Source: Methanobacteriota archaeon (lineage in GTDB: Archaea; Thermoplasmatota; Thermoplasmata; SG8-5; DAIRED01). Taken from it: DNA of 13,528 bases. The stretch lies in NCBI GenBank assembly GCA_043799545.1, contig JAZDNO010000013.1, positions 1 through 13,528 on the forward strand, given 5' to 3'. Under the pieces are notes generated by a model. It ran no database searches, was not told where the DNA came from, and saw nothing but the letters and a program-made list of their open reading frames with translations. How positions within the stretch are numbered: the stretch's first letter is position 1; each line of letters starts with the position of its first letter. Shown here piece after piece: positions 1 to 13,528 of the stretch. The position numbers were made by a program, and so were the translations under genes.

Positions 1-238
1 ACTTGGCCTTGTAGTCCTTGACCCCACGGAGGATTGCCCTTTCCATGATTATCTTGAAGAATGTGTAAATAACTGTGAAAGCTACCATGGTCTGGAGCGT
101 CTTCCCCATGAACGGGCCGAGGTTGACCGAGAGCACCGTCAAATCCGGGTATTTTCGTTCAACGTAAAACAAGGCGATTATTGCGACAATCAACCCTGCC
201 ACTATCGAGATGCGCTCGCTGATTTCCGCATACTTCAT
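1..238 (-). CDS. 5' part of a membrane protein, probably a second MscS-family mechanosensitive channel (runs off the window edge)
   Basis: Not in the ORF track; translated by hand from ATG at 238: MKYAEISERISIVAGLIVAIIALFYVERKYPDLTVLSVNLGPFMGKTLQTMVAFTVIYTFFKIIMERAILRGVKDYKAK, open to base 1. Two hydrophobic segments, GGAG upstream, ATGA overlap with the stop of the upstream MscS gene. The MscS assignment is by resemblance only. Confidence 0.6.
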   Translation of the reverse strand, partial: MKYAEISERISIVAGLIVAIIALFYVERKYPDLTVLSVNLGPFMGKTLQTMVAFTVIYTFFKIIMERAILRGVKDYKAK

Positions 239-1641
239 CCTGTGTTCTCCTTCGGAGGCCATTCGTACTTCCAGGCCTCGTCTCTCCGGATGATGTTCCA
301 TGATGGAGACAGTATCTCAACGCCACCTGAGTCGAAGGCTTCCTGCACCTTCGCGATGAGGTCGCTCCTCGTCATCTTCATGACCTTTGCGGTCTCGGTG
401 TAGGCGAAGAGCTCGTACTCGATGTAGAAATTGGCCAGGTTCGTCGCGAAGACTGTCGGCGCGGGATCCTTGACTATCCCCGGAGTCCCCTCTGCGGCTT
501 TCGTGAGCAAGGCCTTCACCGTCTCGAACTTTACGTCGTAACCGATGCTGAGCGTGATGGAAATAGCGTAGCGGCCCGACTGCGAGAAGTTGATTATCGG
601 CCCCCCGGTTATGTCGTTGTTCGGTATATCCACTAATTCGTTCTGGAGCGTGCGAACTTTCGTGAAGAGTATCCCCTGTTCGACAACGTCGCATATTAAA
701 CCATCCTTGAACTTCACCCGGTCTCCGTCCTCGAACGGCTTGAACGCCATCAGCACTACACCTGACAGAATATTTCCAATTGATCCTGTGGCAGCGAAGG
801 CGAATATCAGACCAACGAAGGTTGTACCGAGTATCAGCATCGTCTGACCGATTTCTCCGAGGTTCGCAAGCGTCAGCATGGAGAATAATATCAGTACAGC
901 GGCAAAGGCGTAAATCCCCCAACCGATCGCTTTACCGGCGAGGTTCGCGAGGTCAGGGCGCAGTTTGCTCCCGCTGCCCTTTGCGTAATCGGCCACGACC
1001 GTCTGTGCGAATTTGTTCGCGAAGTAGGCGACAATCACCAGCAGTACGATGAATCCCAGAATATTGCCGTTCTCGGCTATAAAGTCCAATATGCCGCTGC
1101 TCACGGAGTCCCCGACCTGGGGAATCTGGGTCATTAGAACGAGCATGCATAGGACTGCTGCGATGCCATAGATGATGTATTTCAGTACGAGGCCTGTTAT
1201 CGAGAGTGTCCTGGCCCGCACATCCTTCGTCGCGTCGCCTTTGTAGCTTGCCAGAAGGTATTGTATCAATCTCCTCTGGATCTTCACGAGGACCATCGCG
1301 ACCAAGACTATCAGAGCGATTGAGAAAACGGACGGCAGATACTTCAGCATCGGCGCCCAGATGTTGTCGTGGACCCACGGGATGGAGGCCGCCCCGATCA
1401 AGGTCATCAGCAGAACGATGGAGCCAGCTATTGAGATTTTGATTACCTTGTCTATTAAATCAATGGTATCGTGGTCGAAGTACTTGCTCTCGACCTTGCG
1501 CAGCTCTTCGAGGTGGTACCCGACGCGGACGGCAACGTAGACTATGGCGATAAGAAGCGCTACCAGCACAACCATCACGAGACCGTAGGTCGTGAGGAAA
1601 TCCGCAACTGCGTTGAAATCTATGCCGAACAGGTCAATCAC
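235..1641 (-). CDS. mscS: MscS-family small-conductance mechanosensitive channel with extended N-terminal transmembrane region
   Basis: C-terminal MscS signature (GNILSGVVLMAFKPFEDGDRVK, TKVRTLQNELVDIPNN, ISITLSIGYD, LANFYIEYEL) preceded by many TM helices; GTG start. Confidence 0.93.
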   Translation of the reverse strand: MIDLFGIDFNAVADFLTTYGLVMVVLVALLIAIVYVAVRVGYHLEELRKVESKYFDHDTIDLIDKVIKISIAGSIVLLMTLIGAASIPWVHDNIWAPMLKYLPSVFSIALIVLVAMVLVKIQRRLIQYLLASYKGDATKDVRARTLSITGLVLKYIIYGIAAVLCMLVLMTQIPQVGDSVSSGILDFIAENGNILGFIVLLVIVAYFANKFAQTVVADYAKGSGSKLRPDLANLAGKAIGWGIYAFAAVLILFSMLTLANLGEIGQTMLILGTTFVGLIFAFAATGSIGNILSGVVLMAFKPFEDGDRVKFKDGLICDVVEQGILFTKVRTLQNELVDIPNNDITGGPIINFSQSGRYAISITLSIGYDVKFETVKALLTKAAEGTPGIVKDPAPTVFATNLANFYIEYELFAYTETAKVMKMTRSDLIAKVQEAFDSGGVEILSPSWNIIRRDEAWKYEWPPKENTG

Positions 1642-1693
1642 CTACGCTTTCGTCCATGTTAGAATATTCCCTTGTTGTATATATTATTTTCCG

Positions 1694-2812
1694 TCAGAAG
1701 AGCCCGGCGAGCTTAGCCGCGATGGCCGCGACGGCGATTGCGACCGCTGCAACTGCTGCGCCAATCTTGGCCCAACTGTACGGCGCGTCCCCGTCGATTT
1801 TACCTGTCTGGCCGTTGACCATGAACGCGAACGTCTTGTCCCCGTAGCGATACGAGGCGATGTACAGCGGGAGGAGGAGATGCTTCCACTTGACGTCCGA
1901 GAAGTCGGTTTGCACGCTGAGGTCGCGCTGGGTGTCTCCATCCAGCATCGCCGAGCATGACTTTCTCTCGGAATCCGACATTTGCCCCCTCGCGGTCTGC
2001 CAGCAGTCGCGAGGGTCCACACCATAGGCCTCAGCCCCGAAGCCGGCGAGGAACTGGGACGAGTAGGGAACCAGCGCCGTCAGGTTATATGGGTAGATGC
2101 GCCCTATCCGTTCCTTGACCAGCCCCATAGACGCCGCCACCAGGACATCGTTGTAGAACGCCGCGTGGCTGCCAGACCTGAACTCCCACCGTATCTTCTG
2201 CACCTGCCTCGTCTGGCGCACGGACTTGCCGTTCACCACAGTCGTGTAAGACTCCGTGACGTAGTAGTAGTGGCCGGCGAAACCCGTCCATCGCGAGTTC
2301 GCGTTGGCGTCGAAAGTGAAATGCGGAACGTACGTCCCGTTTATCTGGGAGAGCATCGCCCTTTTCTTCAGGTCCGACGGGCGGAACCACAGGCCGGAAA
2401 TCCAGTTTTTAAAGAGATTGCCCCCGCGCGCCTTGTCGATGGCGAACGGGACGAGGCTCTCCGGGGCGACCATCCCGGGTATCGGCGGCACCTCGACCAC
2501 GACAGGCGAGTCGCAGAAGGCGCACTTCGTAGTCATCTGCGTGCCTGGAAGCGCCGAAGTCGCGCCGCACCTGTCGCACTTGAAGAATCGGGCGCTCGTG
2601 CCGAACCCCTCAGCGGTGGCGTGGGGGACCGGGTCCAACTCGTTGAAAGGATGCTCGATAATCGGCCTCTGCGGTATCGGAATCGGCTGCTCCTTCGAGC
2701 AGAACGGGCACTTCATGTTCACCGTGCCAGGCTCGTACTCGACGGCCGCACCGCAACCCGAACAGTTGAACTTGAGCTCCGAAACTTCGACGCCTTGCTG
2801 CATAGGAACCAT
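1694..2812 (-). CDS. Double zinc-ribbon protein with C-terminal membrane anchor, YdjG-like
   Basis: CSGC..CPFC and CDRC..CAFC pairs, 'VPFAID', 'YVPHFTFD', 'LLPLYIASYRYGDKTFAFMVNGQTGKIDG' and a terminal TM helix. Start moved to ATG 2812 because an AT-rich TATA-like box (2833-2844) lies about 25 nt upstream. Confidence 0.75.
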   Translation of the reverse strand: MVPMQQGVEVSELKFNCSGCGAAVEYEPGTVNMKCPFCSKEQPIPIPQRPIIEHPFNELDPVPHATAEGFGTSARFFKCDRCGATSALPGTQMTTKCAFCDSPVVVEVPPIPGMVAPESLVPFAIDKARGGNLFKNWISGLWFRPSDLKKRAMLSQINGTYVPHFTFDANANSRWTGFAGHYYYVTESYTTVVNGKSVRQTRQVQKIRWEFRSGSHAAFYNDVLVAASMGLVKERIGRIYPYNLTALVPYSSQFLAGFGAEAYGVDPRDCWQTARGQMSDSERKSCSAMLDGDTQRDLSVQTDFSDVKWKHLLLPLYIASYRYGDKTFAFMVNGQTGKIDGDAPYSWAKIGAAVAAVAIAVAAIAAKLAGLF

Positions 2813-2907
2813 GACAGAAAGTGCCTGTGAGGTAATAAAATATAGCTTGCGCATACTGGAAAACTATTCATACCTCTTTCTGTTTAGGCGAAGCCACGAA
2901 ACTGTAG

Positions 2908-2916
2908 TTATTAAAT
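2908..2916 (+). promoter_or_regulatory. TATA-like box upstream of the degenerate tRNA-Asn copy
   Basis: TTATTAAAT 21-29 nt upstream of 2937. A related box (ATAAAAT, 3046-3052) sits at the same spacing before the intact tRNA. Confidence 0.5.
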
Positions 2917-2936
2917 CCCTTTACACGAATGAATCT

Positions 2937-3000
2937 GCCGTCGTAGCTCAGCTGGTGCATCGGCCGAGCTGCGCAATTGGTGTACGTCCATGCCTCGGCG
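2937..3000 (+). pseudogene. Degenerate tRNA-Asn-like copy (pseudo-tRNA or tRNA-derived ncRNA)
   Basis: 2936-2957 is identical to 3072-3093 (22 nt). The 3' end TCCATGCCTCGGCG matches the tRNA end TCCTTGCGACGGCG at 11/14. The middle is 9 nt shorter, with no GTT anticodon loop and no T-loop. Confidence 0.65.
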
Positions 3001-3072
3001 AACCGCAAGGCATTTGGAGAGGTTCGCCTTCGGGAGTTCGTTCGGATAAAATCCTTTTGTTCGCAAACCCTT

Positions 3073-3145
3073 GCCGTCGTAGCTCAGCTGGTGGAGCGGC
3101 TGACTGTTAATCAGCAGGTCCAAGGTTCAAATCCTTGCGACGGCG
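3073..3145 (+). tRNA. tRNA-Asn (GTT)
   Basis: Cloverleaf: GCCGTCG/CGACGGC acceptor, GCTC/GAGC D-stem, GCTGA-CTGTTAA-TCAGC anticodon arm, CAAGG-TTCAAAT-CCTTG T-arm, G discriminator; no encoded CCA. Confidence 0.97.
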
Positions 3146-3147
3146 CT

Positions 3148-3194
3148 ATTTTTCATATGAAAATATTTGCTGGCGGGATCCGCCAGCCAAAAAT
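3148..3194. terminator. Probable bidirectional terminator region
   Basis: T-run right after tRNA-Asn, palindrome TTTTCATATGAAAA (3150-3163) and perfect 8-bp hairpin GCTGGCGG-GAT-CCGCCAGC (3169-3187), between the tRNA (+) and a convergent small ORF (-). Confidence 0.55.
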
Positions 3195-3379
3195 CAACCC
3201 CACCCTTCGAGCCGACCCTGGCAGTCATGACAGAAAGCCCTTGAGGAAGGCATCGGATTGCCACAGCGTGGACAGGGCCGAACGTTCTCCGCACCACCCT
3301 CAAAATCCTTGGGTGGAACTCGCTCGAGGTTGCCACGCCTGGCACGCGTTCGGATACAATTCGTGGTTTCCCGGCTCAT
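3194..3379 (-). CDS. Small putative zinc-ribbon protein (61 aa)
   Basis: MSRETTNC...CPRCGNPMPSSRAFCHDC; CxxC-x10-CxxC spacing; ends just before the hairpin at 3169-3187. The start is uncertain. Confidence 0.4.
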   Translation of the reverse strand: MSRETTNCIRTRARRGNLERVPPKDFEGGAENVRPCPRCGNPMPSSRAFCHDCQGRLEGWG

Positions 3380-3571
3380 AAGGTATCCCCGATTATTATG
3401 GCATTGCCCGAGCCCCTTGAAATAACCTGTCATTCATCCGTTTTCCATACAGCGCCATGCCAGTGGTCCAAAGATTGTTTCAGATGGCTGTAAAACAGCT
3501 ATAGATGATAATTAACAAAATAGGTTTATAATCATGTAATGACAATTCGCTATCGTAGAAAGAAGTGACAA

Positions 3572-3886
3572 ATGCTCCCCTCCTCTGCGATAAATTTAAC
3601 AATCGGTTCATGCGAAAACTTAATTCTTCTTATATACATTGGGTTACACGATGACTCTGGCATCGGAATGTACGAACTCGAAAAAAGCGGCAACGGATTC
3701 TCGCGTTGGTCACTCTACAAGAGCCGCGACGCGCTTCTGGCCCTCGCTCTCATCGAACGCGCGCCGGCGACGCATCTGGCAAGGAAGCCTTACCGTCTGA
3801 CACAGCGCGGGAAGGAAGTCGTTATCCTTTTCGATGATGCATTCACTCGTTTGAATTCAATCCTGGAAAGCGGCCATTGTAAATAG
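3572..3886 (+). CDS. Winged-helix DNA-binding protein
   Basis: Helix-turn-helix-like segment followed by the wing motif KPYRLTQRGKEVV; GAAGTGA SD-like site and TTTATAA box in the upstream AT-rich stretch. Confidence 0.65.
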   Translation: MLPSSAINLTIGSCENLILLIYIGLHDDSGIGMYELEKSGNGFSRWSLYKSRDALLALALIERAPATHLARKPYRLTQRGKEVVILFDDAFTRLNSILESGHCK

Positions 3887-3942
3887 CCTTTCTGGAGCAA
3901 CCGACCTTAGACGCCAACTCGATCGCGCAGAACCCTATTGGC

Positions 3943-4224
3943 TCACCGCTTGCCAGTAACCTTTATCACGTGGTAACCGAACTGGGTCTTCACGGGCGCG
4001 GACAGCTGGCCGACCTCCAGGTTGAACGCCGCGTCCTCGAAGGCCTTCACCATCCGGTTGCGGCCGAAGTACCCCAGGTCCCCGCCGCCCTTGCCGGAGG
4101 GGCAGGTCGACACCTTCTTTGCAATCTCCTCGAAGCTGGCCCCGCCCTTGACCTTCTGTATGATGTCCAGGGCTTCCTTCTCCGTCTTCACCAGTATGTG
4201 GCTCGCGCAGACTTCCTTTGGCAT
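3943..4224 (-). CDS. ppiC: Parvulin-type peptidyl-prolyl cis-trans isomerase (stand-alone, Par10-like)
   Basis: ASHILVK, FEEIAKKVSTCPSGKGGGDLGYF, MVKAFEDAAF, PVKTQFGYHVI; TTTTATA box at 4255-4261. Confidence 0.96.
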   Translation of the reverse strand: MPKEVCASHILVKTEKEALDIIQKVKGGASFEEIAKKVSTCPSGKGGGDLGYFGRNRMVKAFEDAAFNLEVGQLSAPVKTQFGYHVIKVTGKR

Positions 4225-4279
4225 GATAGCACCGGCAAGCCATTTGAAAACAGGTATAAAATTGTGCGCACTGCCCGAT

Positions 4280-4525
4280 TCACTCTTCCAGCTTATCGTC
4301 GCCGAATTGGCGGGCTACGCTCCGTATCATCGCGCCCTCCGCCAGGAAGGCCATGCCCGCTATCACGACGAAAACGTTGAGCCAGGTGATTATCGTCACT
4401 GCCATGACGAGCCAGCGCGGGTCGTCGGGGGACATGTCGCCCAAAGTCGCCACTCCGAGCGCAAACATGAGGAAACCGACGAGCATCATCATCACGCCGG
4501 TGCGGACCTTTACCGTCCTGACCAT
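4280..4525 (-). CDS. Small two-TM membrane protein
   Basis: Two hydrophobic segments joined by DMSPDDPRW; fills the gap between ppiC and the crotonase; ATG 4525 preferred over TTG 4534. Confidence 0.6.
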   Translation of the reverse strand: MVRTVKVRTGVMMMLVGFLMFALGVATLGDMSPDDPRWLVMAVTIITWLNVFVVIAGMAFLAEGAMIRSVARQFGDDKLEE

Positions 4526-4616
4526 GCATGACAATATGTATCACGGAGGATAAATTACTTTCGTCTCATGGTTGCGGCGCCATGCCAGAGCCTTGGTGCG
4601 CCTATGAAATCTTTCC

Positions 4617-5396
4617 TCAACGGCCCTTGAACGACGGCTTCCTCTTCTCCGCGAACGCGCCGGTCCCCTCCCGAAAATCTTCGGTCGCACCGGAAATCGA
4701 GATGAAATGCCTCTCCAGTGCCAGCTGCTCCTCCAAGGTGTTGTCTTTGGCGTGGTTGAGCAGCGCCTTCGTCCTGGTGATTGCAAGCAATGCGTTCACG
4801 GACAGCTCGGAGGCTTTCTTCCTGGCAAAGGGCATCAGGTCATCGGGTGGCACGACCCAGTTGGCGATGCCCCATTCCAAAGCCTCGGATGCGCCCAGCC
4901 GTTTGCCCGCCAGAAGCATCTCGGAAGCGCGCGCCCTCCCCACGTGCTCGACCAGCAGTTCCGTGCCGCAGCCGGGAGCCAGGCCTATTCCGGCGAACCA
5001 CATGCTCAACCGCGCCTCCGTAGACAACACTTTCAAATCGCAGGCCAGCACGAGGCTGCATCCCGCCCCTGTGGCGACGCCGTTCACGGCGGCGAGCACG
5101 AGCGCCGGCGAGCGCCTCACGGCGAGAACGACATCGTGAATAGGTTTCACCAGCTCCATCAGGAAACGCTCCGGATTCTTCGCCTCCCCCATCGCCTTCA
5201 CGTCACCGCCCGAGCAGAAGGCCTTGCCGCTGCCAGTGATTATTATGACCTTCGCATTCTGGCGCTCCGCGTCCTTCAGCGCGACGAAGAGCGCCGCTGC
5301 CGTCTCGGCGTCGAGGCAGTTCATCCTCTCTGGCCGCGTCAATGTCACGGCCGCCGTCCCGTCATCGACTTTCAGGGAAACCGCTTCGCCTGGCAT
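4617..5396 (-). CDS. Enoyl-CoA hydratase/isomerase (crotonase) family protein, PaaG-like
   Basis: TLTRPERMNCL, TGSGKAFCSGGDV, AAVNGVATGAGCSLVLACD, ASEALEWGIAN, DFREGTGAFAEKRKPSFKGR; GGTGA SD 4 nt before ATG 5396. Confidence 0.92.
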   Translation of the reverse strand: MPGEAVSLKVDDGTAAVTLTRPERMNCLDAETAAALFVALKDAERQNAKVIIITGSGKAFCSGGDVKAMGEAKNPERFLMELVKPIHDVVLAVRRSPALVLAAVNGVATGAGCSLVLACDLKVLSTEARLSMWFAGIGLAPGCGTELLVEHVGRARASEMLLAGKRLGASEALEWGIANWVVPPDDLMPFARKKASELSVNALLAITRTKALLNHAKDNTLEEQLALERHFISISGATEDFREGTGAFAEKRKPSFKGR

Positions 5397-5499
5397 GGTT
5401 TCACCGACCCCCATCGCGCACGCGGCTTATATTGGCTTCGCAGGGCCGCACAAAGCGCTTACCAGAAACGTAATATGCGCTGACCCCCATTCAGTGCCG

Positions 5500-6447
5500 A
5501 TGAGCCCCTTGAAGAGGTACGCTCCGCTCGTGGCCGTGGTCGTAGCCGCGTTCCTTGCCGGCAACCTCGTTTACAACGTGGAGAACCTCGATTGGGGGGA
5601 CGAGCAGGACCCGCCGGAGGGGTACTCCCAGCCCGTCGAGGGGCAGAGCGTCTCCAATTCCAATTCCATAGCCAACTCGCTGCGGTACGTCTTCGCAGGG
5701 ACGATAATCCTGCTGATGTGCGGCGCGATAGTCATGTCCGCAGGCAAGGCCGCGAAGGACCCGAAGGGGTTCCTGAAATCTATGGGGGCGTACCTCCTGG
5801 CCGGAGGGCTCATCATCGGGTTGTTCGGAATCATGGCCATGAGCGCCAACCCCCACGGCTCCGTCGGAAGCGTAATACCGTTCATAGGCAGCCAGACATC
5901 TCAGGGCACCGGAAGCACGGGGGACGAGCCGGGCGCGCCGACGCCGCTTGCATCTATCCTGGTTGTCGTAGCGCTGGCGTTCTTCGTCCTCATGGCCGTC
6001 GCGGCGTTCATATTCCTCGGCAAGGCCAGGCGCCCGATTTCTCTCGGCGGCGACAAGGACGATAAGAAGCGGGAGGTCGCGGCGGCGCTCGGGCGCGCGC
6101 GAGACGAGCTGGCAGTCGGCGGGGATTATCGCATCGCGGTGCTGAGGTGCTACAGGGACATGGTCAAGCTCCTGTCTGGGAAGGGCGTGAAGGACAGGGA
6201 CAGCATGACCGCCAGGGAGTTCGAGGCGCTGGCAAGCGCGGAGCTTGAGCTGGGAGACGAGCTTGGGGAGCTGACCGCGCTATTCGAGGAGGCAAGGTAC
6301 AGCCAGCATGACGTGGCAGAAACGCAGAGGGAGCGGGCAGCTCGCGCCTTCGACATGGTCCGAACGACCCTCCTGAAGACAGGGGATGGGCATATGGACG
6401 CTGTTGCATCAGTAAATGCGCTGGGGGTGATTGGCAATGGCAAATGA
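5500..6447 (+). CDS. DUF4129-domain membrane protein
   Basis: Several TM helices and a C-terminal domain with YRDMVKLL..MTAREF..LTALFEEARYS. The upstream part of the called ORF (5224-5499) is antisense to the crotonase gene and its promoter, so start at ATG 5500. Confidence 0.85.
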   Translation: MSPLKRYAPLVAVVVAAFLAGNLVYNVENLDWGDEQDPPEGYSQPVEGQSVSNSNSIANSLRYVFAGTIILLMCGAIVMSAGKAAKDPKGFLKSMGAYLLAGGLIIGLFGIMAMSANPHGSVGSVIPFIGSQTSQGTGSTGDEPGAPTPLASILVVVALAFFVLMAVAAFIFLGKARRPISLGGDKDDKKREVAAALGRARDELAVGGDYRIAVLRCYRDMVKLLSGKGVKDRDSMTAREFEALASAELELGDELGELTALFEEARYSQHDVAETQRERAARAFDMVRTTLLKTGDGHMDAVASVNALGVIGNGK

Positions 6448-7120
6448 CGATGAAATCGTGGCTGAGAACGTTAAAGGAGTTGCGCACAATGCGCAATACT
6501 TATCGCCCACGGATTCAAGCCTCGCGCAGGGCGACGATAGTGACTGGCGGGAGTACGTCGGCGAGACCCTGCTGGTCATATCGTTCCTTGGCGTGGCGTT
6601 CGCGATGCTGGCAATCCCCTTTGTGGTCTACGCCACGTACAGCGGTTCGTTCCGCTGGATAATCACCCTCGGGCTCGTCACCGTGGCAGCGGTCGCGGCC
6701 TTGTGGTTCATCTATCCCCTCGGGGCGAGGCCCAGGCATGAGCCCGAGCTAGAGTCGTTCGGAAAGGACCGGGGCAACTACGAGCCCTTGATGGAGATGG
6801 CCGATCGCGCGAGCCAGGGTTTTTCCTACAGCCAGAAGGCGCTAAACGAGCGCATGGCGGAGGCGTTCCTGGAGAAGCTCAGGATACGCAAGGGCCTGGA
6901 CCCGGGCGAGGTTTTCAGGCTATCGGAGAATGAGAAGGCGCTGGCGGTGGCGTGCGGGGATTCGGAGCTGGCCGCTTTCGTCGTGAGAAGCAAGGCCGCG
7001 ATAACGGAGCAGGCTGAGAGGAAGAGGTTCACCTCAAGGCGCCTGATGGCCAGCCGCGGCGCGAAGTTCAATGTCGAAGCGGCGAGAATCATCGAGCGAA
7101 TAGAAGCATGGGAGGGTTGA
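6437..7120 (+). CDS. Hypothetical two-TM membrane protein of the MoxR operon
   Basis: GGGGGTGA SD then ATG 6437; overlaps the previous stop; two TM helices followed by a soluble helical domain. Confidence 0.8.
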   Translation: MANDDEIVAENVKGVAHNAQYLSPTDSSLAQGDDSDWREYVGETLLVISFLGVAFAMLAIPFVVYATYSGSFRWIITLGLVTVAAVAALWFIYPLGARPRHEPELESFGKDRGNYEPLMEMADRASQGFSYSQKALNERMAEAFLEKLRIRKGLDPGEVFRLSENEKALAVACGDSELAAFVVRSKAAITEQAERKRFTSRRLMASRGAKFNVEAARIIERIEAWEG

Positions 7121-7121
7121 A

Positions 7122-8072
7122 ATGAAAGCGGACGAGGTTAAAAACGTGTGCGGCCAGGTGGCGGTCGAGGTGGAGAAGGCGATAATAGGAAAGAGAAGCG
7201 TCGTGGAACGGGTCATAGCCGCGATGCTGTGCGACGGGCACGTCCTTTTCGAGGATTTCCCGGGGCTGGCGAAGACCATGCTGGCAAAGAGCACCGCCGC
7301 CGCGACGGGGTGCGTGTTCAAGCGCGTCCAGTTCACGTCGGACCTCATGCCCGCCGACATAACTGGCACGTACGTCCTGAACCCGAAGTCCGGCAGCTTC
7401 GAGCTGCGGCGGGGGCCCGTATTCACGAACGTCCTGCTGGCGGACGAGATAAACCGCGCGCCGCCCAAGACGCAGTCCGCGCTGCTGGAGGCCATGCAGG
7501 AGCGCCAGGTTACTCTTGAAGGCGAGTCGCAGACGCTCCAGAGGCCGTTCGTCGTGCTGGCGACCCAGAACCCCATCGAGTACGAGGGCACGTACCCCCT
7601 GCCAGAAGCGCAGATAGACCGCTTCCTGATGAAGCTCAGCGTCGGCTACCCGGAGAAGGCTGACGAGATAGAAATCCTGAAGCGCAGGAAGGCCAGGGGC
7701 AAGGATGAGCCGGACATCGCGATGGTGGCCAGCGCTCAGAAGCTCCTGGAGATGCAGGCCTTCGTCGAGACCGTCCACATAGACCCGTCGATAATGGAGT
7801 ACTGCGCCGAGATAACGAGGAAGACCAGGGGCCACGGCCAGGTAGAGATTGGAGCCAGCCCCAGAGGCTCGCTCGCGCTCATGCGGCTGTCGTGCGCGAT
7901 GGCGGCGATGGCGGGCCGGGACTACGTTCTCCCAGACGATGTGAAATCGATCGCGGTGGAGGCGCTGGCCCACAGGATAATCCTCAAGCCGGACCCGTGG
8001 ATAAAGGGAATCAAGGCCGAGGTAGTGGTCCAGAAAGTGCTGGAGGAAGTACCGGTGCCGAAGGTGAAGTGA
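7122..8072 (+). CDS. moxR: MoxR-family AAA+ ATPase
   Basis: GHVLFEDFPGLAKT (Walker A variant), RVQFTSDLMPADITG, VLLADEINRAPPKTQSALLEAM, ATQNPIEYEGTYPLPEAQIDRF, ASPRGS; GGGAGG SD. Confidence 0.97.
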   Translation: MKADEVKNVCGQVAVEVEKAIIGKRSVVERVIAAMLCDGHVLFEDFPGLAKTMLAKSTAAATGCVFKRVQFTSDLMPADITGTYVLNPKSGSFELRRGPVFTNVLLADEINRAPPKTQSALLEAMQERQVTLEGESQTLQRPFVVLATQNPIEYEGTYPLPEAQIDRFLMKLSVGYPEKADEIEILKRRKARGKDEPDIAMVASAQKLLEMQAFVETVHIDPSIMEYCAEITRKTRGHGQVEIGASPRGSLALMRLSCAMAAMAGRDYVLPDDVKSIAVEALAHRIILKPDPWIKGIKAEVVVQKVLEEVPVPKVK

Positions 8073-9334
8073 GCTTGCTCACCCGCAAGATAGCCATGCT
8101 GGGAGCGCTGGCAATCGCGCTCGTCGTCGCCGGGATGTACCTGCAGAGGGGGACGCTGATAGTCCTCTCGCTCGTGCCTTCGGTTTACCTCGCCCTCCTG
8201 GCCGCGTTCCCCAGGCCCGTGTCACTGGACGTCGACGCATCCAGGTCGATCTCCGAGACTCGCGTCGCCTCGGGGCAGAGGCTCACGGTGACGCTCAGGC
8301 TGGCGAACCGCTCGGAGGCCGCCCAGATTGTCGAGGTCGAGGACGCAGTGCCGGATTGCCTCCGGATCGTCTCGGGGAGCCCTTCGTGCCTCGTCAATCT
8401 GGAACCTGGCGAGGTGCGCACTTGCGAGTACGCCGTCGAGGCGACGAAGAGGGGGCGCCACGTACTAGGCCCGCTGAGGCTCAGGTGCGCCGACCCGTCG
8501 GGGGTTAGGGACCTGGAGCGAACGCTGGCAATCATGACGACCGTGACCGCGATAGCTGAGGTCGAGCCGGAGCGCGAGATACGCATCGCCCCGAACCGCA
8601 CGAGAAATTGGGTCGGCCAGATTGTCTCACGCAGGATAGGCATCGGAAGCGAGACCTGGGGGCTCCGCGAGTACGCGCAGGGGGACGAGATGCGCCATAT
8701 CAACTGGAAGGCCACCGCGCGGACCGGACGTTACATCACAAACGAGTACGAAGCGGAGCGAAGCGGCGACGTGACGATAATACTGGACGCGCGGGAAGGC
8801 TCCGGAAAATCGGACTCGCGCAACTCGCCCATCGAGTCGTCGATCAGGGCGGTCTCGACCATCGGGGCGCACGTGCTGATGGCCAAGAACCGCGTCGGCC
8901 TCATAGTCTTCCGCGACTGCCTGGACACCGTGAATCCCGCATTCGGCAAGCGCCAGTTCTACAGGATTTCCGAGAAGCTCCTGGATGTGCGCTCGGCTGG
9001 CACGATGCCCTTCGAGAACGTCTCGTGGCTCGTCACGAAGTACTTCCCCGTCGAGTCGCTGGTCGTCGTCGTGAGCCCGCTGGCAGACGAGGGAATCGTC
9101 AGGGCCATCGCGGACTTCTGCGCGCGCGGCTACGACGTCGTCGTCGTCTCCCCTTCGCCGCTGGTGACTGCCAAATCGCACGGCCTGGACGGCATCGCTT
9201 TCGGCGTGGCCTCCGTAGAGCGCTCGAACATCCTCAGGGAGCTGGCCAGGTACGCCCGCGTCGTCGATTGGAACCCCGACGAACCGCTTGCCACATCGCT
9301 GCGCACGGTCTCGCCCAGGAGGGGCTCCGCATGA
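8069..9334 (+). CDS. DUF58 (vWA-like) protein
   Basis: LREYAQGDEMRHINWKATARTG, VTIILDAR, NRVGLIVF; GTG 8069 overlaps the moxR stop (GTGA) and follows AGGTGA. Confidence 0.92.
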   Translation: MSLLTRKIAMLGALAIALVVAGMYLQRGTLIVLSLVPSVYLALLAAFPRPVSLDVDASRSISETRVASGQRLTVTLRLANRSEAAQIVEVEDAVPDCLRIVSGSPSCLVNLEPGEVRTCEYAVEATKRGRHVLGPLRLRCADPSGVRDLERTLAIMTTVTAIAEVEPEREIRIAPNRTRNWVGQIVSRRIGIGSETWGLREYAQGDEMRHINWKATARTGRYITNEYEAERSGDVTIILDAREGSGKSDSRNSPIESSIRAVSTIGAHVLMAKNRVGLIVFRDCLDTVNPAFGKRQFYRISEKLLDVRSAGTMPFENVSWLVTKYFPVESLVVVVSPLADEGIVRAIADFCARGYDVVVVSPSPLVTAKSHGLDGIAFGVASVERSNILRELARYARVVDWNPDEPLATSLRTVSPRRGSA

Positions 9335-9888
9335 GGGGAACGACCGCTGCAGCGTGGGGATTGCTGTCCGCTCTAGCGGCCTGGGATATCGCAAGTGCGC
9401 TCGGCGGTCCCATCTCAGATTCCATCGCGCTCTGCGCCCTCGCCTTCGTTGCGGCTGCGCCAGCGCTCGTGCGTTGGGAGGTGCGCAACGCCTTGACGTT
9501 GCGCCTCCGCAACTTCCTTGGAAGGGTGGCGCCATATGCATCGGCGGGCCTGCTGGGCGCATCGCACTTTGTCCTGAAGGACCCATCGGGGAGCTCGCTC
9601 ATGTTCTCCGTCATCTACATTGTCGCACTGCTGGCTTTCGCGGAGCTGGCGAGGTGGGCCCGGTACTCCTCGGGGTTCGGAGAGAACGTGGCATCGGGCG
9701 TAGATTCCGCCTGGTCCAGGACGTTCGGTTCGAGGTTCGTCCCGCTGCTGGCGCTCAGCGTCGGGCTGGCAATGGCTGCGGTCGTTCTGGCCGTCGGCCT
9801 GGACGGCACATGGACGGCACTGGCGCTCGCGGTCGGGCTCATAGTGACAATGGCGCTGACTGCGAGGACGGCGGCCCGGGTCGCCTAA
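9331..9888 (+). CDS. Multi-TM hypothetical membrane protein, last gene of the MoxR operon
   Basis: ATGA overlap with the DUF58 stop, GGAGGGG SD, about six hydrophobic segments. Confidence 0.75.
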   Translation: MRGTTAAAWGLLSALAAWDIASALGGPISDSIALCALAFVAAAPALVRWEVRNALTLRLRNFLGRVAPYASAGLLGASHFVLKDPSGSSLMFSVIYIVALLAFAELARWARYSSGFGENVASGVDSAWSRTFGSRFVPLLALSVGLAMAAVVLAVGLDGTWTALALAVGLIVTMALTARTAARVA

Positions 9889-10571
9889 TCCTTCTGCGAT
9901 GGCTTCTGCGCCGGCTCGGGTTCTTCCACGACCTCGGACTCCTCGGCCTTTGAGAGGTATTTGGCTGGCACGTCGGATATCAGAAACACCGTCGTCCCGG
10001 CCTTCTGGATTGTCATCCCGTCCGCGACGGCCTGCTTAGAGTCTATCGCGAGAATCGCCGGGTCTTCGACCCTGACCCTTCCCGCGACGACCGCCGCCTC
10101 GTAGGTCTTGCTGAGGTGGACCATCTTTCTGTCCGCTGGCTTCAGGCCGGTCTCGAGCAGAAGCTCCATCTCCTCCTGGGTGGTCGGATAGTAGAGCACG
10201 TCCGGTATGTCCCTCGTTGGCAGGTCCAGCTTCACCTCAATCGAGTGTGCGTAGGTGGCGCGTATCTTCCCCTCGCGGAACTGGTACCTGCCCTTCGGGT
10301 CCGTCTCGATGACGGCCATGATGTGGTGGGTCTTGAGCCATCGGAACATTCTCTGCCTCGCCTGGACCGCAGTGACGAACTGTTCCAGGTCTATCCAGCC
10401 CTGTTCGTCCATTGTCAGGCCGTACCTCTCGGGGAAGTGCCTGAGCACGCCGGCCATGGTCCTTCCTATCCTGTCCAGCTCCTCCTCGTTCATGAGGAAG
10501 CGTCCCTCGTCCCCGCATACCGGGCAGTCCTCAGCCCTGAAATATCCGTGCGTCCTGCACTCCTTCAGCAT
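9885..10571 (-). CDS. kptA: RNA 2'-phosphotransferase (KptA/Tpt1) with N-terminal zinc ribbon
   Basis: LRHFPERYGL, DPKGRY, IRATYAHSI, LYYPT, RKMVHLS; N-terminal CRTH..CPVC; GGGGGA SD before ATG 10571. Confidence 0.95.
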   Translation of the reverse strand: MLKECRTHGYFRAEDCPVCGDEGRFLMNEEELDRIGRTMAGVLRHFPERYGLTMDEQGWIDLEQFVTAVQARQRMFRWLKTHHIMAVIETDPKGRYQFREGKIRATYAHSIEVKLDLPTRDIPDVLYYPTTQEEMELLLETGLKPADRKMVHLSKTYEAAVVAGRVRVEDPAILAIDSKQAVADGMTIQKAGTTVFLISDVPAKYLSKAEESEVVEEPEPAQKPSQKD

Positions 10572-10646
10572 AAAACATCCCCCTAGCTTCGGGGTGGGAT
10601 GGGGGAGATGGTAAAAAAGCTTTGGCATACGCGATGAGCCGAAACG

Positions 10647-10654
10647 TATATATA
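10647..10654 (+). promoter_or_regulatory. TATA box between divergent kptA and the CxxC-x17-CxxC gene
   Basis: TATATATA in an otherwise GC-rich intergenic region. Confidence 0.55.
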
Positions 10655-10732
10655 CCAGGGACGTACTGACATCCCTTAATACGTGCATCCCAGGGTGCAA
10701 ATCCGAGGAGGGCGCGTATAGAAAGGTATAGA

Positions 10733-10903
10733 ATGAGCGACAGAAAGTATGACCGCGGCTTTGACCGGGGTCCAAGAGAAATGCACACTGTGAAGTGCTC
10801 CGACTGCGGACAAGAGGACCAGGTCCCCTTTAAGCCGAAGGAAGGCAGGCCAGTGTACTGCAAGCAGTGCTTCGAGAAGCACCGCCCACCGCGAAGATAC
10901 TGA
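10733..10903 (+). CDS. CxxC-x17-CxxC zinc-ribbon miniprotein (56 aa; missed by the ORF track)
   Basis: Hand translation: MSDRKYDRGFDRGPREMHTVKCSDCGQEDQVPFKPKEGRPVYCKQCFEKHRPPRRY*. Exact family spacing with VPFKP..GRPVYC. Confidence 0.93.
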   Translation: MSDRKYDRGFDRGPREMHTVKCSDCGQEDQVPFKPKEGRPVYCKQCFEKHRPPRRY

Positions 10904-11044
10904 GCCAAGCCTCAAGCTAGGTAGAGTATCGAAAAACCTTTTCAGATTTACCTTTCCTCGATTTTCAGGGATTCTCTGGGTCATTATGGCATCGTTTTTT
11001 ACCACGGCGAGATTCAGCATCTAAAATTCGCTCACCGTGGAGTC

Positions 11045-11107
11045 GGACTAGCTTCCCGCTGAGTGAATGACAAAAACCGCTAGTCCTTTCCGGGTGGGAG
11101 CCCATCC
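11045..11107. repeat. Hairpin plus inverted copy of the tRNA-Val 3' end
   Basis: GGACTAGC/GCTAGTCC stem (11045-52/11079-86), then TCCGGGTGGG-ag-CCCATCC (11089-11107), the reverse complement of 11131-11147 with a 2-nt insertion. Confidence 0.8.
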
Positions 11108-11133
11108 TCAATACTGGCGAATAAAGAATCGGA

Positions 11134-11207
11134 TGGGCCCACCCGGATTCGAACCGGGGACCTCCGCCTTGTAAAGGCGACGTCATAACCGACTAGACCA
11201 TAGGCCC
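11134..11207 (-). tRNA. tRNA-Val (TAC)
   Basis: GGGCCTA/TGGGCCC acceptor, TCGCC-TTTACAA-GGCGG anticodon arm, CCCGG-TTCGAAT-CCGGG T-arm; TTAAAATA box at 11232-11239. Confidence 0.97.
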
Positions 11208-11254
11208 GCGCGGCGAGGATTGGCCTGAACGTATTTTAACGTTGGCAACGGAAA

Positions 11255-11482
11255 TCAGTGGGTGGAGTACAGCGTGAACCGAACGTTGGTGCCCCGCAAC
11301 GCATCCTGAAGCTTGTCCAGCATCCTGCGGAACGATTCGCCAACGCCCTCGCCCGGACCCGCCTCCAGCACGAAATCGTATTCCCCGATTACCGGCTTCC
11401 AGTCCAGCTCCTCGAGGCGCTTGATGACCTCCGAGGGCTTCGCCCCCTCGCTGCTGAACTCAAGTTTCAGGTAGGTCTTCAC
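11255..11482 (-). CDS. Small conserved-looking hypothetical protein (75 aa)
   Basis: GGTGA SD then GTG: KTYLKLEFSSEGAKPSEVIKRLEELDWKPVIGEYDFV...; from memory it resembles small proteins of Thermoplasmata (not verified). The longer 134-aa call runs through structured non-coding DNA. Confidence 0.75.
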   Translation of the reverse strand: MKTYLKLEFSSEGAKPSEVIKRLEELDWKPVIGEYDFVLEAGPGEGVGESFRRMLDKLQDALRGTNVRFTLYSTH

Positions 11483-11551
11483 GGATTCACCGGGGGTGGA
11501 TTGGCGTGAATGGTAAAAATCTATCGTTTGTGAGGAACATAATGAAACCAT

Positions 11552-11653
11552 TGGCCCGAGAATGTGACGGTAATTGAACTCGGGCCAGACACGGCCTAGC
11601 TCGCAAATTCCATATTGAACACATACCGCTAGGCCTATCCCGACACCCTTTGC
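11552..11653. repeat. Two hairpins plus inverted copy of the tRNA-Gly T-arm and 3' end
   Basis: TGGCCCGAG/CTCGGGCCA (11552-60/11579-87), GGCCTAGC/GCTAGGCC (11593-600/11628-35), then ATCCCGACACCC (11637-48), the reverse complement of 11673-84. Confidence 0.8.
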
Positions 11654-11669
11654 TTTCATGAAAAACCTG

Positions 11670-11743
11670 TGCGGGTGTCGGGATTTGAACCCGAGTTATC
11701 AGCTTGGCAAGCTGAAGTGATAGCCAGACTACACTACACCCGC
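11670..11743 (-). tRNA. tRNA-Gly (GCC)
   Basis: GCGGGTG/CACCCGC acceptor, TCAGC-TTGCCAA-GCTGA anticodon arm, TCGGG-TTCAAAT-CCCGA T-arm, A discriminator, followed by a T-run. Confidence 0.97.
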
Positions 11744-11771
11744 GCTCTGCATATCAAATGTTTTTATCCGC

Positions 11772-11827
11772 GCGGGTTCCCTCGGAAAAGGCTCCCAGAT
11801 TGGCTTCCTTTTCCTCGGTACACCCGC
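11772..11827 (-). ncRNA. Candidate 56-nt structured RNA, unit 1
   Basis: GCGGGT-GTA-CCGAGG-AAAAG-[17 nt]-CTTTT-CCGAGG-GA-ACCCGC; rod hairpin with a tandem G.A pair; covaries with unit 2. Transcription is inferred. Confidence 0.7.
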
Positions 11828-11854
11828 ATTTTGCTTATTAATGCTTTTTGTCAT

Positions 11855-11910
11855 GCGGGTTCTCTCGGGAAAGGTTCGCACATCAGCGGTCTTTCCCTCG
11901 ATACACCCGC
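11855..11910 (-). ncRNA. Candidate 56-nt structured RNA, unit 2
   Basis: GCGGGT-GTA-TCGAGG-GAAAG-[17 nt]-CTTTC-CCGAGA-GA-ACCCGC; TTTAATA box 28-34 nt upstream (11938-11944). Confidence 0.7.
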
Positions 11911-11951
11911 CCTGGCGTTCGGGGAATTATTGCCTCGGTATTAAACGTTTC

Positions 11952-12236
11952 CTACTTCTGCTTCTTCAGCATCTCGTTTATCTCGGCTGAGTTCATATGC
12001 CCCTGGACGTTGATGTCGACATTGGTGACGCCCTCGACCTGCGCCACGGCGCTCTTTATCGCCACGGCGAGCTGGATTCCCATCGGGCAGAACGGGCTCG
12101 TCGGAGTGAAAGTCAAGGAGACCTTTTCCGGCTCGACCTTCAAGTTGGTTATCAGCCCCATCGTGTACACGTCAAGCCCCGTGTGCGGGTCCATCACGGC
12201 CTTCAGCTTCTCCACCACCTTTTCCTCTTTTTCCAT
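11952..12236 (-). CDS. DUF59/MIP18-family iron-sulfur cluster assembly protein
   Basis: VMDPHTGLDVYTMGLI and TPTSPFCPMG motifs; GGAGGTG SD overlapping the valS end. Confidence 0.9.
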   Translation of the reverse strand: MEKEEKVVEKLKAVMDPHTGLDVYTMGLITNLKVEPEKVSLTFTPTSPFCPMGIQLAVAIKSAVAQVEGVTNVDINVQGHMNSAEINEMLKKQK

Positions 12237-12238
12237 AT

Positions 12239-13528
12239 TTACACCTCCACCAGTACCGTCAATCCTCGAATCGAAACCGAATTCACCATCTTGCCATGAG
12301 ACTTCAGCCCCTTCTCGATTTTCACGTCGCCCTTGGAAATTTCAGCCTGCGTGCCGTCGTCGAACGTGAGCAGTAGGTGTCCAGATTCCAGGGCCTTGGC
12401 CGCGTCCTCGACGGGCATGCCTGCCAATGCATCGTAGACTTCTTTGGCTTTTCCCCTGAATTTCGGACCGAGCGTCGCCTTGTTGGGCTTCACAGCCGTC
12501 GGTACCTCTTCCACAACCGAATCCTGGGTTATCACCAGGCGATTTATCTTCAGCGTCCCAACGATGTCGTCCTCGCAGCCCAGAAGGGCCGATGAGCCCT
12601 CGCCGGAAATCTCGATGGCGGCCAGCTCCGCGTTGAGGGCCATCCGGTTGTCCGACTTCCACGATCTCACGCCCGCGATGACGTCCCGCAGCAGATCGCC
12701 GCGCTCCTCCTCCTCGTCGTCGAAGAGCGCTGGCTCTGGCCACGGCGCGGTCGTGATGCTGAGCCACGGCTCAGTCTGGATGAAGTGCGAGTGGTAAATC
12801 TCCTCGGCGATGTGGGGCATTATCGGGGCGAGCATCCTCAGGACGCCCAGCGAAACCGTGTAGAGCGCGTACTGGACCCCCTTGTCACCCGCAGCCATCC
12901 GGTGCTTCGCCATCTCGAGGTAATGGTCCGCGAACTCGTGCCACAGGAACTGCTCGACTGCGCGGAGCGCCGCGTCGAACTGGCAGTCCTCCATCGCCTT
13001 CGTCGCCGCCTCCACGGTCCGGCTGTACTTGGAGAGAATCCATAGGTCTGCCGGCTTGAGGTCTTCCGCCGTCGCCCCCGGCTTACCCTTCACGCTTATC
13101 CCGACGAACTTGCAAACGTTCCAGAGCTTGTTGCATAGCTTCTGGCCGTGGACGACCTCCTTCACCTGGAAGGCCTGATCGACGCCGAGGGTGCACGTGG
13201 CGGCGAAGTAGCGCATCGCGTCCGCCCCGTACTGCTCCAGCAGCGGGATGGGGTCTATGATGTTGCCCAGCGAGGTGTGCATCGGCGTGCCGTCCGGAGC
13301 CATGATGAAACCGGAAATCATCGTCTCGCCCCAAGGCCTTTTTCCGGTTATCTGGAGGCATCGGAGTATCGTGTAGAACGTCCAGGTGCGGATGATCTCG
13401 TGGCTCTGGGGACGGATGTCCTCCTCGCCAGCGAAGCCGCCGGGGACGTCGCGCTGCTCGGCGGTGCAGCCGGGGGGTGTCAGTCATCGGGTCGATGGGG
13501 AGCTGGTCGATCGATGGCAGGATCGGGT
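12239..13528 (-). CDS. valS: Valyl-tRNA synthetase, 3' part (archaeal type); frameshifted near 13478 and apparently missing an internal segment
   Basis: The frame extends upstream of the called ATG through RPQSHEIIRTWTFYTILR; GNIIDP..YGADAMR, KLCNKLWNV, FLWHEFADHYLE and the anticodon-binding tail are present. LPIDPMTD lies in a different frame upstream of 13478. Confidence 0.9.

Follow-up and report, generated by a model that had tools for sequence, protein, structure and literature searches.

Two-hairpin cassettes carrying an inverted copy of the host 3' end behind tRNA and other small-RNA genes of uncultured Thermoplasmatota

Introduction

Short repeats linked to stable-RNA genes have been described in Escherichia coli, namely the 178-bp repeats of tyrT, rtT, and the rrA, rrB and rrF units behind 5S rRNA (Egan and Landy 1978, cited in PMC8144298); three of these repeats are transcribed by read-through and processed, and their function is largely unknown (PMC8144298). 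In the archaeon Methanopyrus kandleri, half of the tRNA genes have a conserved palindrome about 10 bp behind them, for which a function in 3' maturation has been suggested (PMC5217627). Here we analyze two cassettes located behind the tRNA-Val(TAC) and tRNA-Gly(GCC) genes in contig JAZDNO010000013.1 of a thermoplasmatal genome (assembly GCA_043799545.1); positions 1 to 13,528 of this contig are referred to below as the window. Both cassettes are gene-less and combine a conserved core of two hairpins, H1 and H2, with an arm that copies the 3' end of the host gene in inverted orientation. They belong to a lineage-specific family that we find in one genus of uncultured Thermoplasmatota and in a neighbouring family.

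The E. coli tRNA-linked repeats are the closest analogue of the cassettes in behaviour. Like these repeats, which follow tRNA and rRNA genes, the cassettes are short gene-less units that stand immediately downstream of the gene and are co-oriented with it, sometimes occur in tandem, carry a piece of the upstream gene 3' end, and lie between terminators. Unlike them, the window cassettes have an inverted copy at the 5' end and no direct copy at the 3' end, where the E. coli units have one of 18-19 nt (some siblings of the window cassettes do end in a direct copy); further differences are the covarying two-hairpin scaffold at about 20 loci, the archaeal host, and the presence of the signal recognition particle (SRP) RNA gene among the hosts. 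The M. kandleri palindrome is likewise archaeal, forms a hairpin, and closely follows many tRNA genes, but it is constant and short, and has neither a copy of the tRNA end nor a second hairpin.

Two kinds of DNA element that act as folded single strands show partial likeness to the cassettes. In the IS608 mechanism, elements of the IS200/IS605 type are active via single-strand hairpins and carry a left-end guide of 4 nt that is fixed for each element. The cassettes resemble such left ends in that the segment 5' of the hairpin foot complements flanking target about 20 nt upstream on the same strand, but the cassette arm is 9-19 nt long and different at every locus, and near-identical copies are lacking. 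Integron attC and CTX-phage-type sites are folded single-strand attachment sites, which share with the cassettes the conservation of structure over sequence, imperfect hairpins with small extra-helical bulges, and possible arrays. Unlike attC sites, the cassettes are not associated with open reading frames, and the attC core motifs (RYYYAAC/GTTRRRY) are found in just three of 53 copies, the window copies having GCT where attC has GTT. In full-text literature searches, no description of cassettes of this kind was found for Thermoplasmatota or any other archaea, the nearest match being the M. kandleri palindrome (PMC5217627), and the family appears to be undescribed in the literature searched.

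Results

Anatomy of the two cassettes

The two hosts and their cassettes are encoded on the minus strand. The tRNA-Val(TAC) gene (11134-11207; ARAGORN; Rfam RF00005, 67.5 bits) is followed by a T-rich spacer with terminator-like T-runs (11108-11133), an arm of 19 nt that includes two extra nucleotides (11089-11107), hairpin H1 with a covarying 8-bp stem and a 26-nt loop (11045-11086), and hairpin H2 with a 10-bp stem and a 19-nt loop (11002-11040). Downstream of the tRNA-Gly(GCC) gene (11670-11743, the lower boundary being placed at 11669/11670; ARAGORN; RF00005, 66.4 bits), the same order is found: a spacer with a T5 run inside a small palindrome (11654-11669), the arm (11637-11653), H1 with an 8-bp stem and a 27-nt loop (11593-11635), and H2 with a 9-bp stem and an 18-nt loop (11552-11587). 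Each H2 belongs to the consensus fold of the family and is also predicted in the RNA fold. A covariance model comprising H1 and H2, named R1, matches positions 10996-11087 (80.9 bits) and 11545-11636 (77.8 bits). The cassettes start at +26 nt (Val) and +16 nt (Gly) relative to the co-oriented tRNA. A unit generally runs from the host gene through a T-rich spacer (12-30 nt) and the arm to H1, from which the arm is separated by 1-2 nt; H2 follows after about 5 nt, and a short tail closes the unit. The whole cassette takes about 110 nt and contains neither an integrase nor cargo.

The Val arm is antisense to the 3' strand of the T-stem of tRNA-Val, the 3' strand of the acceptor stem, the discriminator, and three trailer nucleotides. 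In the Gly arm, a perfect stretch of 12 nt (11637-11648), antisense to tRNA-Gly positions about 59-70, is followed by three extra and two complementary nucleotides. Since the arm is complementary to the gene end across the T-rich spacer, a third hairpin, H0, can form, with the spacer as its loop in the RNA fold of both loci. Partners of the arms inside their own cassettes were looked for in both window copies and were not found.

The original prediction, made from the letters of the window alone, had placed a shared hairpin next to an inverted copy of the cognate tRNA 3' end at both loci, the two stems differing by one compensatory pair. All of this is borne out by our analysis. It had also set the arm at exactly two nucleotides from the stem, which is true of the Val cassette, but the distance is 1 nt in the Gly cassette; and while it recognized H1 and the arm, it overlooked H2, which at the Val locus lies outside the interval that it covered, as well as the three trailer nucleotides past the discriminator that extend the Val inverted copy. 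About half of each element had thus been recognized.

Chance is a poor source of such structures. A 5-bp stem core with a gap of 20-30 nt occurs twice in the window against 0.11 expected, a count of two being reached in one of 200 shuffles, and the full 8-bp form of the stem has just six occurrences in the 2.06-Mb genome. In a scan of positions 10500-12300 against Rfam 15 with E-values up to 5, only the two tRNAs scored.

Covariation and folding of H1 and H2

Alignment of the copies downstream of other tRNAs revealed H2, five nucleotides after H1. In the consensus fold of 16 base pairs, 12 pairs show compensatory changes. Among 53 copies from four genomes, 98.6% of the stem positions are paired, with 181 cells in which both partners have changed, and the covariation score is 0.64, compared to 0.18 in shuffled alignments and no more than 0.09 with slid partners. 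Changes on both sides are seen in eight of the nine H2 pairs. The H1 loop has a consensus of its own, which is non-palindromic and conserved across copies and species. Modelled read-through RNAs fold into H0, H1, and H2, with z-scores of -3.8 and -4.6.

Two known RNA motifs were considered and set aside. A kink-turn in H1 was rejected by eye, the two bases after the 3-nt bulge not being GA. A bulge-helix-loop substrate of the splicing endonuclease in H0 is suggested by a 3-nt bulge and 4 bp in a few Leu copies only, and is not seen in Val, Pro, or the Gly orthologue.

Distribution and host genes

The R1 model was searched against the genome of the window (G000), the sister species G001, the genomes G002 and G005 from the neighbouring family, and 36 others. 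About 21 significant copies were identified in G000, 27 in G001, 12 in G002, where they form arrays with an 88-nt period, and 27 in G005, where tandem arrays repeating about every 112 nt are frequent. None was found in the 36 others, which belong to the same order and class. An exact-pattern scan with the H1 loop consensus through all species genomes yielded the sister species only, plus scattered single chance matches in bacteria.

Every copy in G000 with an identifiable upstream RNA gene or gene fragment is downstream of that gene and co-oriented with it. The hosts are not restricted to tRNA genes, as had been assumed originally. The SRP RNA gene of G000 (RF01857, 139 bits) carries a cassette whose arm is directed against the gene's own 3' end, and so does the SRP RNA gene of G005, a member of another family. 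An unannotated small RNA-like gene at G000:C12:98040-98400 (L120:340-700, minus strand) shows the same design: it consists of a promoter-like AT box, about 45 nt, and a T-run, and has no Rfam match; behind it stand three arm-hairpin-sense units in tandem, all built on the 3' end of this gene. On the genome-wide scale of the scan proposed with the original prediction, the design follows about 20 small-RNA genes, and it occurs also in relatives.

A related structure was observed outside the R1 family. At locus L100 (genome G009, family f4), the region 3' of tRNA-Gly(GCC) has no H1-H2 cassette, yet it contains an 8-bp inverted repeat around the T-run, which is built from the last bases of tRNA-Gly and four trailer bases. 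Therefore, an H0-like fold-back can exist without the core.

The arm mirrors the host gene

In each of the 19 modules of known host, the 25 nt preceding H1 were matched against a set of 42 RNA 3' ends, namely those of all 41 tRNAs and that of the SRP RNA. The cognate end was the best or joint best of the set in 17 of the 19 modules. The Val arm ranks its own tRNA first with a score of 27; the Gly arm scores 24 with its cognate, tied with tRNA-Gly(TCC), whose 3' end is identical. The view that a common scaffold is combined with an arm tracking the adjacent gene is thereby upheld.

The perfectly matched core spans 9-17 nt in 39 module-host pairs from the four genomes, and the arm length varies between 9 and 19 nt. 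Three registers can be distinguished. In the first, the match starts from tRNA position 53 and covers the T-loop and T-stem; in the second, to which both window copies belong, it starts from position 59 and covers the T-stem and the acceptor strand; in the third, it comprises the last four bases and the trailer T-run. A stop of reverse transcriptase at m1A58 was considered as the cause of the start at position 59 and rejected, since it accounts for one register only, the CCA complement is missing, and no reverse transcriptase was found in five genomes. Trailer bases occur in the arms and the complement of CCA never does; therefore, it is the gene or its primary transcript that is mirrored, not the mature tRNA.

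The arms also follow differences between species. Between G000 and G001, a five-base change in the T-stem of tRNA-Leu(TAA) is mirrored in the arm, as are single changes in tRNA-Ile and tRNA-Pro. At tRNA-Val(GAC), the mirrored base lies just past the discriminator, that is, outside the mature tRNA.

At the opposite end of the cassette, the Arg, Gln, and Ile siblings (rank 1 each) and the Pro and Met siblings terminate in a direct copy of the tRNA end. No direct copy is present in the Val and Gly cassettes, for whose tails their own tRNA end plus trailer ranks 12 and 6 of 42, respectively. Flanking direct repeats of the kind produced by target duplication are limited to the copies in the T-loop register and one Leu copy, and none is found at the window copies.

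Age, conservation, and turnover

The Gly cassette is orthologous in G000 and G001. Its stems have been kept through three compensatory changes, one G-C to A-T change in H1 and two changes in H2, and its arm is conserved, while the loops and the neighbouring non-coding DNA at this locus have strongly diverged. Except for a tandem Ile pair (98%), identity between copies from separate loci does not exceed 81%. The dispersed copies are thus old, and nothing points to recent transposition; that stems, arms, and the H1 loop consensus have lasted in such old copies speaks for active maintenance.

Against this background, part of the family is in flux. The tRNA-Val(TAC) gene of G001 (L053:1777-1896), the orthologue of the Val gene of the window, is followed by a different cassette family, termed module D, which takes the place of H1-H2. 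The copy number differs between G000 and G001 at Leu(GAG), Ile, Pro(CGG), and Thr(CGT), and the core variants at Leu(CAA) and Val(CAC) are not the same in the two species. No clean pair of a filled and an empty site was found: Val(TAC) is swapped, the flanks of Thr(CGT) are non-homologous, and synteny is lost beyond the genus. Module D also occurs in G000 itself, at about 15500-15640 of C24. The tRNA-Val(TAC) gene of G001 has in addition a 46-nt insert in the D-arm region that is absent from G000.

Neighbouring features in the window

The cassettes are neighboured by a gene for a putative KptA/Tpt1-like RNA 2'-phosphotransferase (9888-10568, minus strand), as judged by eye from the sequence. 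A gene for an apparent small CxxC zinc-ribbon protein (10733-10903, plus strand) converges on the Val cassette. Directly upstream of tRNA-Gly, at 11772-11910 on the minus strand, there are two tandem hairpin units of about 56 nt, each with an AT-rich promoter-like box, the first 9 nt of tRNA-Gly at its start, and the acceptor 3' strand at its end; they resemble tRNA genes with a hairpin in place of the body.

Discussion

We tentatively favour, over a cassette that folds back at the DNA level, the possibility that the cassette is a cis-acting 3'-end module of read-through transcripts, with a mechanism that we infer as follows. RNA polymerase would pass the weak oligo-T stop of the host gene and transcribe the cassette; in the read-through RNA the arm would pair back on the host 3' end, the U-rich stretch being looped out, and H1 and H2 would come next, often with a second T-run behind them. 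Together, H0, H1, and H2 would serve as a fail-safe for read-through transcripts, stopping or insulating them or marking them for processing. The arm may stay matched to its host either because pairing is selected for or because one half of the inverted repeat is the template on which the other is corrected. A role in RNA is supported by the strict co-orientation of cassette and host, by the T-runs that precede the arm, by another T-run after H2 in roughly half of the copies, by the conserved, non-palindromic H1 loop, by the folding of the modelled read-through RNAs into H0, H1, and H2, and, as a precedent, by the E. coli repeats that are read through and processed.

Several observations do not sit well with such a role. 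G·U pairs are rare in the cassette stems and no commoner than A·C mismatches (five and three, respectively, of 785 stem cells), compared to 18 G·U and no A·C among 480 cells of tRNA stems from this genome; nor is G·U in excess in the arm duplexes. Pairing of this kind is strand-symmetric and agrees better with maintenance at the DNA level than with selection on RNA. In the RNA fold, formation of H0 comes at the cost of the acceptor and T arms of the tRNA, which would be unfolded. The T-runs of the cassette-bearing tRNAs are not significantly weaker than those of other tRNAs (median 4 vs 5, p = 0.13). The T-rich spacer, about 20-33 nt before H1, is in the place of a TATA box for a transcript that starts at H1; such a transcript might leave out the arm entirely. 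Finally, an indispensable processing signal should be more stable than the cassettes are, given the exchange for module D at tRNA-Val(TAC), the variable copy number, and the long tandem arrays in the neighbouring family.

Many of the same facts would be expected of a DNA-level fold-back cassette, which we consider possible if somewhat unlikely. The H1-H2 core would then be, or have been, a non-autonomous element joined to an inverted duplication of the 3' end and trailer of its target, produced, for instance, when synthesis snaps back or switches template, or when a folded single strand recombines; all hairpins, H0 included, would be kept perfect by templated correction of the quasipalindrome type and not by a function in RNA. 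Among the options offered by the original prediction, an element that copies its target in inverted orientation indeed fits the arm best: the arm copies gene DNA, with trailer bases included and the CCA complement left out, and its pairing is strictly Watson-Crick. The H1-proximal end of the arm falls at three tRNA positions, like variable template-switch points, and many of the stem pair changes swap purine and pyrimidine between the strands. The tandem arrays, the differences in copy number, the swap of cassette families at one tRNA between sister species, and the Arg, Gln, Ile, Pro, and Met siblings ending in a direct copy of the tRNA end are also in line with this origin. Conversely, there are no near-identical dispersed copies and hence no sign of recent movement, the window copies have no flanking direct repeat, and correction inside a hairpin cannot explain the conservation of the non-palindromic H1 loop. 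Nor is there a linked enzyme: no reverse transcriptase was found in five genomes, and the hairpins of the IS200-type transposase are unlike the cassette.

This transposase was evaluated as a possible mobiliser of the cassettes; it is present in 16 of 22 genomes of the order, but its end hairpins are unrelated to the cassette and lend such a role no support. It is an IS200-type protein (113 bits), below the cut-off for the transposases of repetitive extragenic palindromes (REP); together with the unrelated flanking hairpins, the identity of at most 81% between dispersed copies distinguishes the cassettes from IS200/IS605 derivatives and from REP or REPIN sequences. The gene stands alone at G000:C12:58590-58937 (L085:1393-1896), with flanking hairpins of its own and no adjacent TnpB gene, and its homologues in the order are mostly present in one to three copies per genome.

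More doubtful is a self-addressing system, in which the scaffold would copy its insertion target in inverted orientation and so acquire an address of 9-19 nt for the 3' end of a stable-RNA gene, to which it would recruit a host factor either as RNA or as folded single-stranded DNA. If true, this would represent a new coupling of element and target that needs neither a dedicated array nor a protein-coding gene.

A guide RNA in the strict sense is improbable. Here H1 and H2 would be a protein-binding scaffold and the arm a 5' guide that sends an enzyme to the 3' region of the neighbouring transcript or gene for modification, cleavage, or recombination. The conserved scaffold with its H1 loop consensus and a variable 5' segment at a fixed distance of 1-2 nt have the appearance of such a guide. 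However, the three target registers argue against a single modified nucleotide, the arm length ranges from 9 to 19 nt, the guide adjoins its target, which is needless for a guide acting in trans, and neither an Rfam match nor a partner protein was identified. The C box (RUGAUGA) of the archaeal C/D box small RNAs is present in none of the 53 copies in the direction of the tRNA and in three on the opposite strand, and a C box followed by a D box in none; ACA in the last 12 nt, as in archaeal H/ACA small RNAs, is found in one of the 53, and the arm is a single stretch outside the hairpin. With three pairing registers and no C/D or H/ACA boxes, the earlier suggestion of a guide for T-loop modification is not sustained. 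Another suggestion, a primer-binding site as in retroelements, fails on the trailer: the arm pairs with it and not with CCA, whose complement is missing, and the RVT_1 domain of reverse transcriptases was not found in the five genomes searched.

Tyrosine-integrase elements that were once integrated in these tRNA genes could have left decaying attachment (att) scars, and integrases, searched with the general integrase family, do adjoin several tRNA genes in this genome. This explanation is largely refuted and very improbable. Where such an element did integrate, at tRNA-Val(GAC), the last 15 nt of the tRNA were left behind as a direct copy, but the window copies are inverted only and take about 110 nt with no integrase or cargo; the stems are maintained by compensatory change, the SRP RNA gene has the same design, and at tRNA-Val(GAC) the cassette predated the integration, standing behind the displaced tRNA end. 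The intact tRNA of this event lies next to a tyrosine-integrase gene (G000:C25:2690-3404), and the displaced last 15 nt, the original trailer, and the H1-H2 cassette are at G000:C28:15985-16149. An assembly artefact from chimeric fold-back reads, which had been named as a refuting possibility, or a chance resemblance has only the inverted-repeat geometry in its favour and is refuted by the contig-internal sites at about 20 loci, their recurrence in three other independent assemblies, the Gly orthologue of the sister species with its compensatory changes, and the low chance expectation.

Taken over the lineage, a maintained and structured appendage mirroring the gene's own 3' end is borne by about half of the tRNA genes, as well as by the SRP RNA gene and at least one small RNA-like gene. 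The cassettes are the archaeal equivalent, with a far more regular build, of the E. coli tRNA-linked repeats, the role of which has been an open question since 1978. The cassettes also confound the annotation of tRNA genes and integration sites in metagenome-assembled genomes of Thermoplasmatota. The natural variants, that is, the three registers, the arrays, and the swaps between species, allow a role in the formation of stable-RNA 3' ends to be tested against self-maintaining DNA palindromes.

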